Part shown: piece by piece, positions 12,249 through 51,822 of the stretch
How positions within the stretch are numbered: position 1 is the stretch's first letter
How the letters are laid out: each line of letters opens with the position of its first letter
From: Alphaproteobacteria bacterium
GTDB lineage: Bacteria > Pseudomonadota > Alphaproteobacteria > Bin95
Length of the DNA stretch: 64,000 nt
Reading direction: 5' to 3'
Assembly: GCA_964291285.2 (NCBI GenBank)
Contig: OZ219785.1
Location: forward strand, 1,120,001 to 1,184,000
The notes under the pieces: generated by a model
The model's input: the letters and a program-made list of their open reading frames with translations, nothing else
What the model was told of the DNA's origin: nothing
The model's database searches: none
Made by a program: the position numbers and the translations under genes

Positions 12249-12383
12249 CTATGAGGCTGTGAAACGCCGGGCTGCGTCATCGAGGCGCACGAATTCCGCA
12301 CCGAGGCCGCGAAGGCCCTGGATCAGCCGTTCAAGGAACAGCATCCGGTGGCCCCGGCCGATGACCAGCGGGTGGAAGGTGTA
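12249..12383 (-). pseudogene. 3' fragment of the split polysaccharide deacetylase gene
   Basis: Reverse strand reads YTFHPLVIGRGHRMLFLERLIQGLRGLGAEFVRLDDAARRFTAS*, the missing C-terminus of the ORF starting at 51822. Confidence 0.95.
12373..12383 (+). repeat. Left 11-bp direct repeat TGGAAGGTGTA (att core or target duplication)
   Basis: Identical to 51131-51141; flanking bases differ on both sides. Confidence 0.95.
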
Positions 12384-12766
12384 AATCTCGAACGTGATTT
12401 ATCGAGTTAGGGCACTATCTGACAGAGGGTCGCATTCCTCCCATGAAGGGGTCCTGAATACAGGATATTTTCGGGCATGACAAGAGGCAATGGCAGGAAA
12501 TCGGGATTGACCTACAGGGAGGTCGTGAAGGCGATAGTGGCACTGGGGGAAGCAGAATGGGGACAATGCGTTGTGCTCAGGGGGGCATGGAGGATAGCTC
12601 CATGCATGAGTGCCCTCCTGATGTAAAGACAGTCAGGATCATGGCGGTGATGCACCGAATCACCTTGTGAGAGGACAAATACCATAATTGATACAGGAGA
12701 AACACAAGCGTGTTGGCCGATGGAAATCGGAATGGTGGCGGCTGCGGCGGTTCCAGAGGCGTCGTC

Positions 12767-13150
12767 ATGAGCCGGCCGCCGGGGGGCCGCCGCACCCGGC
12801 ATGCGGTGATGGCGACGGCGAACGAGTGGGCGCGCATCAGGGAGCTTGCCGACGAGGCGGGCATGGAAATATCGCGCTACATCGTTCACCGGGCCATCAT
12901 GGCGGAGGCGGTGCCGGCCGTCGTCATGCGGCGCGCGGTGCGCGAACTGCTGGTGCTGGTGAAGGTAGAGCAGGAGCGCATGGAGGACCTCGACCTGGGG
13001 GACCGCTGGGCCGCTCTCGGCGATGCCGTCGATGCCTGGCTCTCGCGGGAGGGCGACCTGGACCGTCTGACCGACCCGGGCGCGGTAGCGCGCTGGCAGG
13101 CGGTTTCGGCCAGTGCTGATCCGGAAGGCGGCCCCGCGCCGCAGCCCTGA
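12767..13150 (+). CDS. Putative ribbon-helix-helix (MobC-like) DNA-binding protein
   Basis: AVMATANEWARIRELADEAGMEISRYIVHRA fits the RHH/MobC pattern; GAGG upstream. Confidence 0.5.
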   Translation: MSRPPGGRRTRHAVMATANEWARIRELADEAGMEISRYIVHRAIMAEAVPAVVMRRAVRELLVLVKVEQERMEDLDLGDRWAALGDAVDAWLSREGDLDRLTDPGAVARWQAVSASADPEGGPAPQP

Positions 13151-13178
13151 GGCGGTCATGGCAAGGCTGGTTTGCCGT

Positions 13179-14010
13179 ACAGGTGGCATATCCGCCCGCT
13201 GATCGACACGCGCCTGATGTGGCGGGTCGAGAAGAAGGAGCCGGGCCATGACCCGGCCCGGCCGATCACGCGACCGCTGTTCCCCGGGCGCGCCGACGTC
13301 ATCGTTCATGACGAACGCGGCCGGGTGTCCTGCGTGTGCCCGCAGACCGGCGAGGTCCGCGCCATGGCCTTCCAGGGGTTCGAGGCCGGGCGCGGCGTCT
13401 GCGGCACGCTCAAATACCGCTGCCCCGCAGCCGCCTTCGGCTTCGAGTGCAAGGGACGCCGGGCCTGCCATCGGGCGGGTGGGGTGAAGTCCGGCGAATA
13501 CGGCCGCATCCTGCGCGTCGATCCCGACAGCCATGACCGGCGCCTCTTCACGCCCACGCCCTGGGGCAGCCCGTCATGGCGGCGCGGATACAACCGGCGC
13601 ACGGCCATGGAGCGGATCAACGCCCGCCTCGACCGCAGCTTCAACTTCGAGACCCATTACATCCGCGGACGCGCGAAGATTGAAGACCCGCATCGGGCTG
13701 GCCCTGGCGGTCATGATGGCCATGGCGCTTGCACAGGCCCGCGCCGGACGCGTCGCACGCATGCGCTCCCTGGTCGGCCCGGCGCCATACCTCGATACCG
13801 GCTGACCCCTCAGCCGACTGCCGACAACGCTGACCCAACCCGCCGGACCCCGGCATACGGACAAACGCGACCGAAGGCCGGCGATGCTGCCGGGCTGGGC
13901 CGCTCAAGTTCGAAAAGCAACCGCGGCGACCGCCTCGAACGCCGGAACAAACAACATCACCACCCGGACCCAACGTCCCATCCGACCGGAAAAACACCAC
14001 AGCGCAAATT
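13179..14010 (+). pseudogene. DDE transposase remnant (5'-truncated, frameshifted) with its 3' non-coding end
   Basis: Near-identical inverted copy at about 25124-25954; +1 frameshift near 13680 (GCGAAGATTGAAGACC vs GCCAGGATGAAGACC). Confidence 0.85.
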
Positions 14011-14017
14011 TTCTATG

Positions 14018-49881: not shown

Positions 49882-49884
49882 CGC

Positions 49885-51009
49885 TCAATTCCTTTCCAGC
49901 ACGGCGCTGACGATTTCGGCGGCTTCATGAACCATGGCGTCGGCGGCATGCGTGTATTTCAGCGTCGTCTGCGGATTGCGATGACCGAGCAATCTTGCGA
50001 TCGCAAGCACGGTCTCGCCCTGTCTCAACGCAAAACTCGCATGGGTATGTCGCAAATCGTGGAGGCGAACCTCGCCCAGACCTGCTTCGATGCGAACCCG
50101 ATACCAGAACTTGTCGAGCCAGACCTTGTTTCTGGGCCCGTCCGTTCTCGGCGCCGGAAAGACCCAGCCGCTCTTCCGCCCGAGCATATCGAGAATGTTG
50201 CGGGCGGGCCGCGAGAGCCACACGGTTCTGGGGCCTGTCTTGCCGTCTCGCAGGAACAGGTGGCCTTCCCGGTAGTCGGACCAGCGCAGGGTCAGGATTT
50301 CGCTCCTGCGGCACCCCGTGAGGAGCAGCAGGCGGACGATGGCGACCTGTTGGGGATACCGGGCGGCATGCGCCGTCAACCTGGCGGACAGACGACGGAT
50401 TTCTTCGTCGGAGAGAAACCGTTCGCGCCCCTTGCGACGGTAGCGGCGAATGCCCCGGCAAGGGTTGGAACCCTCCGGGCGCATGCCCATGGTCTCCGCT
50501 TCCCTCATGATGACGGACAGCACCGGCATCGACCGGTCCGCCGCGACCGGCGTCGCCCGAAGCGAGGCGAACCAGTTTCGCACGTCGCCTCCGTCGATGC
50601 CGGCGATCCCCCGCCCGGCGAAATACGGCAGAAGCTGGTTGCGCAGATAGCACCGGTTCACATTGAGCGTTCCAGCCTTCCAGACGCGGGCGTATCGGTC
50701 GAACACGGTCTCGGCAACGGCCTCGAAGAGCGTCTCCTCGGGCCGCGCAGGCGCGCTCTTGCCTTTTCGAATCGCGGCAAGCGTTTCGGTGGCATGCGCT
50801 CTCGCTTCCGCTATGCCCGTATTGTCGGCGTCGCCGATGATTTTCCAGATGCGCTCGCCGCGACGCTGGCTTTGGACAAAGAAGCGTTTCCTGCCCCTGG
50901 GCAGAATCCGAACGCCGAAACCCCTGAGTTTGGCGTCCCGGACGTCATAAGCGGTCTTTCGCGGCCGCAGCGCCTTCACGCGGGCATCGGTGAGGATGGT
51001 TCTGGCCAT
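49885..51009 (-). CDS. Tyrosine recombinase A of pair 2
   Basis: Clear homologue of 26313-27437; catalytic residues intact; ATG at 51009 after GGGAG. Confidence 0.95.
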   Translation of the reverse strand: MARTILTDARVKALRPRKTAYDVRDAKLRGFGVRILPRGRKRFFVQSQRRGERIWKIIGDADNTGIAEARAHATETLAAIRKGKSAPARPEETLFEAVAETVFDRYARVWKAGTLNVNRCYLRNQLLPYFAGRGIAGIDGGDVRNWFASLRATPVAADRSMPVLSVIMREAETMGMRPEGSNPCRGIRRYRRKGRERFLSDEEIRRLSARLTAHAARYPQQVAIVRLLLLTGCRRSEILTLRWSDYREGHLFLRDGKTGPRTVWLSRPARNILDMLGRKSGWVFPAPRTDGPRNKVWLDKFWYRVRIEAGLGEVRLHDLRHTHASFALRQGETVLAIARLLGHRNPQTTLKYTHAADAMVHEAAEIVSAVLERN

Positions 51010-51079
51010 GGTTTTCTCCCGGCTCCGGTTGCAGCCAGGGAGCCAGGGCATTGCATCCCGCTTCCCCAGTTGCAGATTT

Positions 51080-51129
51080 TTCGGGAGAAAAAACGACGCT
51101 ATGTCAGATAGTTAGCACCCAAAGGTGCG
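51080..51129 (-). repeat. Conserved 50-bp element end at the island right boundary
   Basis: 46/50 match to 26194-26243; lies 1 bp from the direct repeat. Confidence 0.93.
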
Positions 51130-51822
51130 CTGGAAGGTGTAGGTCATCAACCCGCCTTCCTCATGGCGGACCATGTAGCGGAAATCGTCCAGCCAGTTTT
51201 CCAGCACGGCGCCCGTGCTCCTGAGTCCCGGCATACCGGGCGGCATGAACTCGAAATGCGGCCAGTCGTCCGCGCTCCAGGAGACCGGCAGTTCCAAGAG
51301 CGCGGTTTCCTCGCCGAAGGTCGAGGCCTCGTCGACACGTATGACGTCGCCCCGGCGCACCCGGTAGGGCTGCGTGTCGTGGCCCATCATCGAGCTGTCA
51401 TAGGCGAAGCCGCGCTCCAGCAACAGCTCGACGGAATGCTCCGAAAGGTCCCAGGCAGGCGAGCGGTAGCCGCGCGGCCGGGCGTTCGTCAGCGCCTCGA
51501 TAGCGGCGATGCCCCGGTCCAGCTCCTCCGCTTCTTCCTCCCTCGACAACTGGGTCGGCGTGATATGCCGCCAGCCGTGATGGCCGATCTCGTGGCCGGC
51601 CTCGTGGATGCGCCGGCAATGGTCCGGCCATGTGCCGATGGTGATGCCCGGGATGAAGAAGGAGGCCGCGATGCCGTGGCGGTCCAGAAGCCGCAATATG
51701 CGCTCGACCCCGACCGCGCCGAACTCGCCGCGCGAAAGCATGGTCGGCGAGGTCCGGCCCCGCGCGATGAAGCCCGACATGCCGTCGAAATCGAATGTGA
51801 GCGCGGCAAGGCAGGCCGTCAT
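51112..51822 (-). pseudogene. 5' part of PuuE/PgdA-like polysaccharide deacetylase, truncated by the island
   Basis: TFDFD, SFFIPG, HEIGHHGWRH, GYRSPAW, YDSS; ends MTYTF then island-derived QRTFGC*. Confidence 0.93.
51131..51141 (+). repeat. Right 11-bp direct repeat TGGAAGGTGTA
   Basis: Identical to 12373-12383. Confidence 0.95.

Follow-up and report, generated by a model that had tools for sequence, protein, structure and literature searches.

A 38.7-kb insert splits a polysaccharide deacetylase gene

The 64-kb window analysed here (contig OZ219785.1, positions 1,120,001 to 1,184,000, assembly GCA_964291285.2) comes from an alphaproteobacterial genome, G000, whose sequences supply the C1–C5 coordinates given below. 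It contains a polysaccharide deacetylase gene whose two parts lie at opposite borders of a 38.7-kb insert with two adjacent tyrosine recombinase genes, intA and intB, at its right end (Table 1). The minus-strand open reading frame (ORF) from 51822 reads ...GGLMTYTF up to the border and continues with QRTFGC*, six foreign codons to a stop inside the insert. This 5' part matches Polysacc_deac_1 in Pfam (PF01522, E=4e-20), and the displaced 3' fragment is translated as YTFHPLVIGRGHR...TAS*. The 11-bp sequence TGGAAGGTGTA occurs exactly twice in the window, on the same strand and once at each border; the number expected from 100 dinucleotide shuffles is none. Scripted deletion of 12384-51141 restores a single open frame of 271 codons that keeps the original stop. 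A search of the window for tRNA genes found none, and the end of the deacetylase gene is not regenerated by the island. Because nothing in the element rebuilds the 3' end of its target, the gene is split. A sequence-only reading of this DNA had described the break after MTYTF with its continuation at 12249-12383, the 11-bp duplication, the in-frame 271-residue product, the lack of gene restoration, and two halves free of stops or frameshifts. All of these hold when the translations, the repeat count and the deletion are carried out, and the split gene and its repeat are confirmed to the base.

The insert borders are the ends of a multi-copy family

Both terminal sequences of the insert recur in the genome. 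The left end has 14 genomic matches, all beginning at query base 1 (12384), and the last 79 bp of the right end has 22, which start from the predicted boundary. Since these sequences repeat from the exact border, the borders of the insert are borders of the family and not those of an internal insertion sequence (IS). At either end the 9-bp motifs TTAG(G)GCAC(C) and TATCTGACA, which differ from each other, occur once each, and the core at the junctions is flanked by unlike element-side sequences, GGTGCGN and AAATCTC. The architecture of the integrase-proximal end recurs in other genera and in another family. The insert, 12384-51130, is therefore very probably an integrative element and one copy of a multi-copy family.

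IntA and IntB are each 388 aa long and comprise three domains: DUF4102 for arm binding, core-binding and catalytic. intA lies 3 nt upstream of intB with nothing between, and the two genes are translationally coupled. Tyrosine recombinases rely on Arg, Lys, His-x-x-Arg, His/Trp and the Tyr nucleophile for catalysis. The corresponding R248, K271, H331, R334, H357 and Y366 (IntA numbering) are invariant in all six IntA/IntB sequences from three lineages, and IntA aligns to the catalytic domain of HP1 integrase (1aih). PF00589 matches place both proteins in the tyrosine recombinase superfamily. The arm domain of IntSXT/P4-type integrases, PF13356, is found in both, as well as in a second pair inside the island and in a more distant lineage described below. 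The conserved integrase module ends within ~100 bp past intB, with no conserved third ORF adjoining, and the intA–intB pair is the only protein-coding module conserved among copies.

The distal end bears a 127-aa ORF with a ribbon-helix-helix (RHH) N-terminus, which matches the NikA-like model PF21983 (E=5.5e-6; 26.9 bits against a cut-off of 27) and, weakly, MobA/TraJ models of NCBIfam. Full-length copies are kept in 6 of the 14 distal modules and truncated or altered ones in three more; in the distal type preceding the 8-kb copies the ORF is lost or frameshifted. It is a candidate directionality factor or accessory DNA-binding factor. Integrative mobilizable elements have an oriT and a relaxase or a relaxosome accessory protein; here the NikA-like match is borderline, and the conserved modules of the family contain no relaxase.

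A tblastn census of the genome counted 80 near-full-length integrases; 35 intA-to-intB pairs stand in tandem, with 7-77 nt between the two genes. Canonical ends, TTAGCACC-N3-5-GGTGCGN, accompany 23 of these pairs, and there are 14 canonical distal ends, GGTGTA|AATCTC. Identity to the island pair differs between A and B by at most 4 points in 35/35 pairs, indicating that the pair evolves as a unit. This bears on a rival explanation in which the two proteins act separately, one as the integrase and the other as a paralogue for excision control, inversion or resolution. Each has the full set of catalytic residues and could therefore act on its own. The fixed order and 7-77-nt spacing in 35 pairs and in another bacterial family, the parallel divergence of A and B, the two different motifs per end and the unlike half-sites around the core nevertheless make separate action unlikely.

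Seven complete copies, 8.2-38.7 kb in length, have in common only ~500-800 bp at the distal end and ~2.4 kb comprising intB, intA and the adjoining end; the middle is variable cargo. The 8.2-kb copies carry a porin, an unknown protein and a Slam-like protein. Two such copies, in C3 (C3:1616818-1625005) and C5, are 99.9% identical apart from a 1.8-kb insertion and lie in different flanks, a sign of recent movement, and a third end with the same module is found in yet another flank (C3:414146). The empty site of the C3 copy was verified in 7/7 related loci; the right flank of the C5 copy, a 21-copy repeat, was dropped as a probe and the C3 copy used instead. The family is present in 14/17 genomes of the genus, with 1-21 IntA-like genes each (E<=1e-140) and the maximum in G000, and in 2/300 other sampled genomes of the class. 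These two, G323 and G179, belong to one other family, and in them the elements are again multi-copy and tandem with a GGTGT core. Ten loci in metagenome-assembled genomes (MAGs) carry the same end. Searching a plasmid collection with the integrase module returned a single, uninformative 105-nt match.

A 43%-identical tandem DUF4102 lineage (11 copies; for example L066, G000:C1:791800-802400, and C1:51800-61497) has the same porin/Slam cargo and distal end as a 71%-identical lineage. In one of its copies a 742-bp piece of intB from the other lineage adjoins the new pair; from the sequence, this suggests that the integrase module was replaced. The occurrence of the same cargo and distal end with different integrase lineages indicates that modules are exchanged among elements.

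A ten-base core and many targets

At the integrase-proximal ends, GGTGT follows GGTGCGN after 4-6 nt in 18 of 22 cases, and the other four have one mismatch; GGTGTA directly precedes 13 of the 14 distal ends. The junction core common to the copies is thus 10 bp, N5-GGTGT. It is present at 10/10 MAG-locus ends, 7/7 ends in G323 and G179, and 4/4 further loci of the genus. Empty targets (the deacetylase, ISx1 and C3 sites) contain the core once, and occupied ones have it twice, once per junction; seven of eight paired copies have core-containing repeats, 7-11 bp long. Their targets are diverse (Table 1). ISx1 (e.g. at C1:93918, C2:255962 and C4:21490) is a preferred target, its site GAACGCGAAGACCGGCGCGGTGTGGAAGAAGG being intact in 24 copies and interrupted in four, and ISx3 is a further recurrent one (C1:201959, C1:811113, C3:123443).

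Part of the core is brought by the element. Identical N4-5 bases adjoin different downstream flanks at C1:201959 and C2:434360, and likewise at the loci L085 and L086, which indicates that N4-5 travels with the element. In the 8.2-kb C3 copy, the original target of the relatives, TCGCTGGTGT, is kept at the integrase-side junction, and the distal junction reads TCTCTGGTGT. The two differ at one position, so the element must have brought its own slightly different core; this fits recombination between similar cores and not duplication by a staggered cut. Two copies that moved recently show one mismatched base within the 10-bp core. Read in this light, the 11-bp repeat of the island is attP/attB identity, between the joined ends of the element and the target, and not a transposase duplication, with 11 bp in place of 10 because the next base also matches.

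The island's own lineage behaves more narrowly than the family. Its terminal pair is single-copy in the genome and ~75% identical in nucleotides to all other copies. A relative with 94% aa (93% nt) identity in the integrase module occupies the identical nucleotide in another species, G005. In a more distant relative (86%; L055, a MAG locus), the same 10-mer, TGGAAGGTGT, adjoins part of a catalase gene (PF00199, E=2e-33), and the 83% relative in G004 lies in another flank, with TGGGCGGTGT. The catalase junction and the second flank show that the lineage follows a short sequence and not a gene; as judged from these loci, it is short-sequence-specific and not promiscuous. The transposon-like insertion with relaxed target choice that the sequence-only reading had proposed stands at the family level, with 35 pairs in many flanks and near-identical copies at different sites, but the relaxed choice does not extend to the island lineage, which re-uses its 10-mer.

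A rival view is that the insert is an ordinary site-specific island with a dedicated attB in the deacetylase gene and a strict target, to whose behaviour the other copies are irrelevant. The single-copy, divergent pair, the G005 relative, a rearrangement breakpoint at the same core in G007 (see below) and the long target identity of 10-11 bp all fit this view. Against it stand the catalase-joined 10-mer of L055, the other flank of the G004 relative, the failure of the element to rebuild the gene, and ends and architecture in common with lineages that demonstrably use many sites. We consider a dedicated attB quite improbable.

Insertion by a DDE transposase, as a composite or unit transposon with the 11-bp repeat as target-site duplication, can draw on the at least seven IS copies inside the island and on the inverted ISx1 copies that flank the block of RTX and type I secretion genes. 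Neither junction carries an IS end, however, and both are family ends; the repeat varies from 7 to 11 bp with GGTGT always inside, as expected for a recombination core and not for a fixed staggered cut; and ISx1 and ISx3 are themselves targets of the family. DDE transposition is accordingly very hard to sustain, and the proposal that the terminal recombinase pair carried out the insertion gains support from junctions that coincide with ends of the pair's family.

Empty site, junction support and age of the insertion

Orthologues of the deacetylase 5' part (P0001), 86-98% identical, turned up in 11 further genomes of the genus. Nine of the 11 orthologous loci, from nine genomes, were compared, the orthologues in G014 and G003 lying outside the comparison. 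In seven of the nine (L030, L032-L037) the flanks are contiguous with one copy of the 11-mer position, so the uninterrupted site predicted by the earlier reading exists in relatives. The predicted 26-mer empty site is exact in L032 and L033, and the remaining uninterrupted loci show 1-3 substitutions. GGTAT replaces GGTGT in three uninterrupted orthologous loci.

The related element in G005 interrupts the gene at the identical nucleotide, as both of its borders (on two contigs) show, and has a different distal end; its junction is independent support for the assembly. Between G000 and G005, intA and intB have a synonymous divergence of 0.21-0.24 and three flanking genes one of 0.27-0.41, and G002, which has an empty site, is closer to G000 (0.14-0.22). 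From these values, separate insertions in G000 and G005, or loss by precise excision, are favoured, although not decisively.

A Logan contig from run X19, possibly the source sample, crosses the right junction (51092-53000) without a difference. Although the genome is extremely repeat-rich, an assembly artefact joining unrelated repeats, which the earlier note had named as one possible refutation, can be dismissed with near certainty: both junctions lie in unique sequence, the X19 contig spans the right one, G005 has the same junction type on both sides, and the empty-site reconstruction is exact.

The age of the insertion is less firmly constrained. The 5' fragment has a ratio of nonsynonymous to synonymous substitution (dN/dS) of ~0.04-0.05 both against the intact orthologue in G002 and against the interrupted one in G005. 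These values would mean either that the insertion is young or that the truncated enzyme still functions, which is possible since its NodB domain is complete. Run X21 shares its study and organism label with X19. In it, a 5089-nt contig of depth 438 matches 51131-53000 with two differences and leaves the element exactly at 51131, with a further 625 letters lying off the element; the sole exact intA contig in this run has depth 11. This hints that the insertion is polymorphic, although contigs show presence and not absence. The "recent insertion" of the sequence-only reading thus has indirect support, from dN/dS and from the X21 contig with its low intA depth.

A sponge metagenome, run X1, contains a 3456-nt contig of depth 12 that covers the deacetylase/SDR flank (51134-53000) with 72 differences in 1867 nt. 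Its match to the window stops at 51134, which indicates that the sponge sample contains a relative lacking this integrase end at the site. The overhangs in X21 and X1 (640 letters in the latter) may be the empty site or some other arrangement. The X20 flank contig ends at ~51299 and is uninformative on the junction. Shares in sponge, coral and marine metagenome runs were below 0.25 and were not used for habitat.

In G007, a different species, the break in the deacetylase gene falls precisely at the same core (C3:3188257 and 3244634; L038, L040, L043). Beyond both breaks there are no family ends but unrelated sequence. The gene parts are mutually inverted and 56 kb apart, with related IS, RTX and type I secretion system (T1SS) cargo between them, and one break runs into an AIPR-like gene that is intact in G000 (C2:654233, C4:31246). 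A simple inversion with an AIPR-like gene does not account for the arrangement: one side matches such a gene in G000 and the other does not.

Proposed mechanism

Based on these data, we propose a plausible mechanism for movement of the family. First, the element would excise as a circle with joined ends ...GTTAGCACC-CAAA-GGTGCGC-[TGGAA-GGTGT]-AAATCTCGAACG.... IntA and IntB would be seated by their arm-binding domains on the pair of unlike 9-bp motifs that each end carries, and would also bind the unlike half-sites GGTGCGN and AAATCTC. This complex could then capture a target that needs little beyond the 10-bp core N5-GGTGT, and strand exchange within the core would leave one core copy per junction. 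Precise excision would restore the deacetylase gene. The N5 carried by the element would bias the next target, giving a lineage-preferred short sequence together with spread of the family to many sites. Hetero-oligomeric action, arm-site assignment, a circular intermediate, where strands are exchanged and what the RHH protein does are the inferred parts of this scheme. We tentatively suggest that the family may represent an undescribed class of tyrosine-recombinase transposon, in which an obligate, pre-assembled P4-type IntA/IntB hetero-oligomer acts on two kinds of arm site and would require in its target only the invariant 5-bp GGTGT plus a portable, re-writable 5-nt specifier.

Several observations weigh against the proposed mechanism. 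The occupancy of the same site in G005 could be inherited rather than independent. One proposed pair of ends, C3:1579037/1587280, lacks a good repeat. Canonical distal ends number 14 against 23 canonical integrase ends, so many copies are one-ended or have other distal ends. The RHH match falls just under the Pfam cut-off, and the ORF is missing from the most recently moved copies. The island's distal end is 99% identical to one in C4 that is apparently paired with the 43%-identical integrase lineage; the island may therefore be chimeric, and its integrase pair may not recognise that distal end. Finally, the assembly contains no circle or tandem junction and none was seen in reads, which leaves excision as a step that we infer.

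If such a transposon class exists, islands of 8-40 kb carrying secretion systems, porin/Slam genes, restriction or toxin-antitoxin functions would be able to move inside a replicon or from one to another, settle in IS copies and build up to the 35 copies of this symbiont-like alphaproteobacterial genome. A specifier taken over from the site before would let target preference evolve with use. A pair that works as proposed would be a natural case of insertion of tens of kb at ~10-bp sites of which half is carried by the element and changeable, which bears on the trade-off between specificity and mobility in tyrosine recombinases, on the search for programmable large-cargo integrases, and on the fluid multi-replicon genomes of some host-associated Alphaproteobacteria. 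For annotation, adjacent "site-specific integrase" genes in these genomes mark one island family with definable ends, so that island borders can be called to the base and split genes such as the deacetylase recognised as reversible insertions and not as decay.

Comparison with known elements

Within the literature available to the search, no description of tandem DUF4102 integrase elements was found. From the nearest known multi-recombinase elements, Tn554, SE/GMT, GInt and RIT, the family differs in its exactly two P4/SXT DUF4102 genes, no third gene, far-end RHH ORF and alphaproteobacterial hosts, as judged from published descriptions. More than one recombinase and a portable short core are common to Tn554, SE/GMT, GInt, RIT and the family.

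The Tn554 core, GATGTA, resembles the GGTGTA of the family. According to two reports (PMC10214605, PMC3414803), Tn554 of Staphylococcus (tnpA, tnpB, tnpC) requires two adjacent tyrosine recombinases for movement, moves in a transposon-like manner, and has a short core that travels with the element as well as imperfect terminal repeats. The family differs in having ordinary-sized P4/SXT recombinases with DUF4102, no TnpC-like third gene adjoining, the far-end RHH ORF, an alphaproteobacterial host and tens of copies. In place of the Tn554 set of tnpA and tnpB, one of them large, plus a small tnpC, both proteins here are of 388 aa. DUF4102, the hallmark of the IntSXT subgroup according to PMC8138268, argues, at the level of domain content, for a subgroup other than that of TnpA/TnpB.

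Like SE/GMT, the family combines two catalytic tyrosine recombinases at one island end, a footprint-like short spacer and defence/offence cargo (PMC10214605; 10.1101/2023.03.28.534373). According to PMC10214605, SE has four core genes, intA-tfp-intB-srap, and was found only in Gammaproteobacteria. Neither this order nor the gmtY, gmtZ, gmtX set was found: intA and intB of the island are 3 nt apart, no search was aimed at srap or tfp, and the match to the GmtZ model reaches 23 bits, far from its cut-off of 600. With GInt (ginABCD) and RIT (ritABC) the family has in common several tyrosine recombinases at the end of, or forming, a mobile unit, and terminal inverted repeats. Those elements have three recombinase-like genes, plus ginD in GInt, whereas the family has two, both with DUF4102; in 35/35 pairs and in the annotated modules, only two adjacent integrase genes were found. 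According to PMC10214605, no ginC-ginD blocks were found in Alphaproteobacteria.

P4/SXT (IntSXT) integrases resemble IntA and IntB in their DUF4102, core-binding and catalytic domains and in short attP/attB identity. They work singly, however, each at one specific attB that is often a tRNA gene or a rebuilt gene end, whereas the family combines a fixed pair of heterologous integrases with an invariant core of 5 bp and many targets, and does not rebuild the target. A P4-type island with one integrase and a dedicated, regenerated attB is thus not what lies in the window, where a pair, no tRNA gene and a family of many targets were found, and the junctions show neither transposase terminal inverted repeats nor a duplication of fixed length, as a DDE transposon would. 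CTnDOT, NBU1 and Tn916-type integrases likewise carry a partly heterologous crossover region from site to site (in part after PMC2817482), but they are single integrases of different subfamilies. XerC/XerD also are two paralogous tyrosine recombinases on unlike half-sites of one core; unlike IntA and IntB, they are chromosomal housekeeping proteins without arm domains, and NCBIfam Xer models score far below their cut-offs on the family integrases. The bipartite module (BIM) of Cupriavidus was considered and rejected, because it consists of one recombinase and an unrelated protein (PMC3414803).

Composite interior of the island

The island is an accreted composite of RTX/T1SS genes, type I restriction-modification (R-M) genes, at least seven IS copies and a one-ended second integrase pair (Table 1). 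Since the two ends, intA, intB and the RHH ORF are all intact, the island may still be able to move in one piece.

Table 1 Features of the island in the 64-kb window, and paired copies of the family in G000
Feature	Position	Strand	Description
Displaced 3' fragment of polysaccharide deacetylase	12249-12383	-	44 codons plus stop
Left copy of 11-bp repeat TGGAAGGTGTA	12373-12383	+	family core N5-GGTGT inside, 12373-12382
Conserved distal-end module	12384-13178	+	starts AATCTCGAACG; 84-99% similarity to ~13178
Distal-end motif TTAGGGCAC	12407-12415		
Distal-end motif TATCTGACA	12416-12424		
Small ORF, 127 aa	12767-13150	+	N-terminal ribbon-helix-helix, NikA/MobC/TraJ type
Partial ISx1 copy	13179-14011		inverted relative to 25120-26193 copy
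RTX-repeat protein	14086-16296	+	Pfam
T1SS ABC exporter	16483-18348	+	Pfam
HlyD-type fusion protein	18167-19642	+	Pfam
Second RTX-repeat protein	20137-22521	-	Pfam
2.5-kb IS	22588-25107	-	DruA-like + DDE_Tnp_1 transposase, 23229-25025; at least 10 copies, 99.5-99.8%
ISx1 copy	25120-26193	-	cut at GCGCGGTGT site by second integrase module
Module B, one-ended	26194-28582	+	end 26194-26243; intA-like 26313-27437; intB-like 27437-28582
Low-GC cargo block	28501-37803		GC 0.55-0.64; without other genomic copy; includes unknown ORFs
SocA/Panacea-domain protein	28501-29952	-	Pfam
hsdR	32324-34801	+	Pfam, type I R-M
hsdM	34804-36255	+	Pfam, type I R-M
hsdS, weak	36628-37803	+	Pfam, type I R-M
IS nest	37916-48622		Pfam and copy numbers
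IS5-like	37916-38855		
IS4-like	39143-41005		
IS66-family copy	41074-42813 and 46996-47935		split by IS21-family element
4-kb IS21-family element	42812-46998		istA, istB, ORF with DUF3991/Toprim-like matches
Partial ISx3	47931-48622		
intB tyrosine recombinase	48715-49881	-	PF00589 E=2.7e-22; PF13356 E=5.6e-9
intA tyrosine recombinase	49885-51051	-	PF00589 E=1.2e-19; PF13356 E=9.5e-10
Integrase-proximal end	51052-51130	+	GAGAAAAAACGACGC, TGTCAGATA (51102-51110), GTTAGCACC (51111-51119), CAAA, GGTGCGC (51124-51130)
Right copy of 11-bp repeat TGGAAGGTGTA	51131-51141	+	
Deacetylase 5' part	51131-51822	-	231 original codons; present end six codons into island
Paired copy, island	12384-51130		repeat TGGAAGGTGTA; target deacetylase gene
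Paired copy	C1:412419-448754		repeat TCAGGGGTGT; target not identified
Paired copy	C3:123443-145041		repeat CCGTGGTGT; target ISx3 (ISx3 on both sides)
Paired copy	C2:1395568-1406613		repeat GCGCGGTGT; target ISx1
Paired copy	C4:508025-518088		repeat GCGCGGTGT; target ISx1
Paired copy, 8.2 kb	C3		repeat CTGGTGT; target single-copy site
Paired copy, 10 kb	C5		repeat CGGGTGT; target 21-copy repeat

The second pair, in module B, is inverted relative to the terminal pair, to which its proteins are 72% and 71% identical, and its end is 92% complementary to 51080-51129. The arrangement of ISx1 plus module B recurs at three other loci with 95-96% identity; neither a distal end for module B nor the other half of its ISx1 was found within the window. 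The IS21-family element has ~20 copies at 99.9-100% identity, indicating a very recent expansion.

Several repeats were noted in the cargo. The 7.1-kb RTX/T1SS segment (14010-21086) is duplicated on another replicon (C4:670169-677276) with 96.4% identity, and the second RTX-repeat gene contains six tandem 30-bp units, 87-97% identical, at 21010-21249. Beside the 2.5-kb IS, a 206-bp unit is tandemly duplicated (98%; 22676-23087), and an inverted copy of 92-93% identity lies 9 kb away, just upstream of hsdR (31890-32102). Direct repeats of 155 nt (94%; 39002-39156 and 43621-43775) bracket the IS4-like element and the IS66/IS21 nest, and they separate two parts of the IS21-family copy that are contiguous elsewhere.

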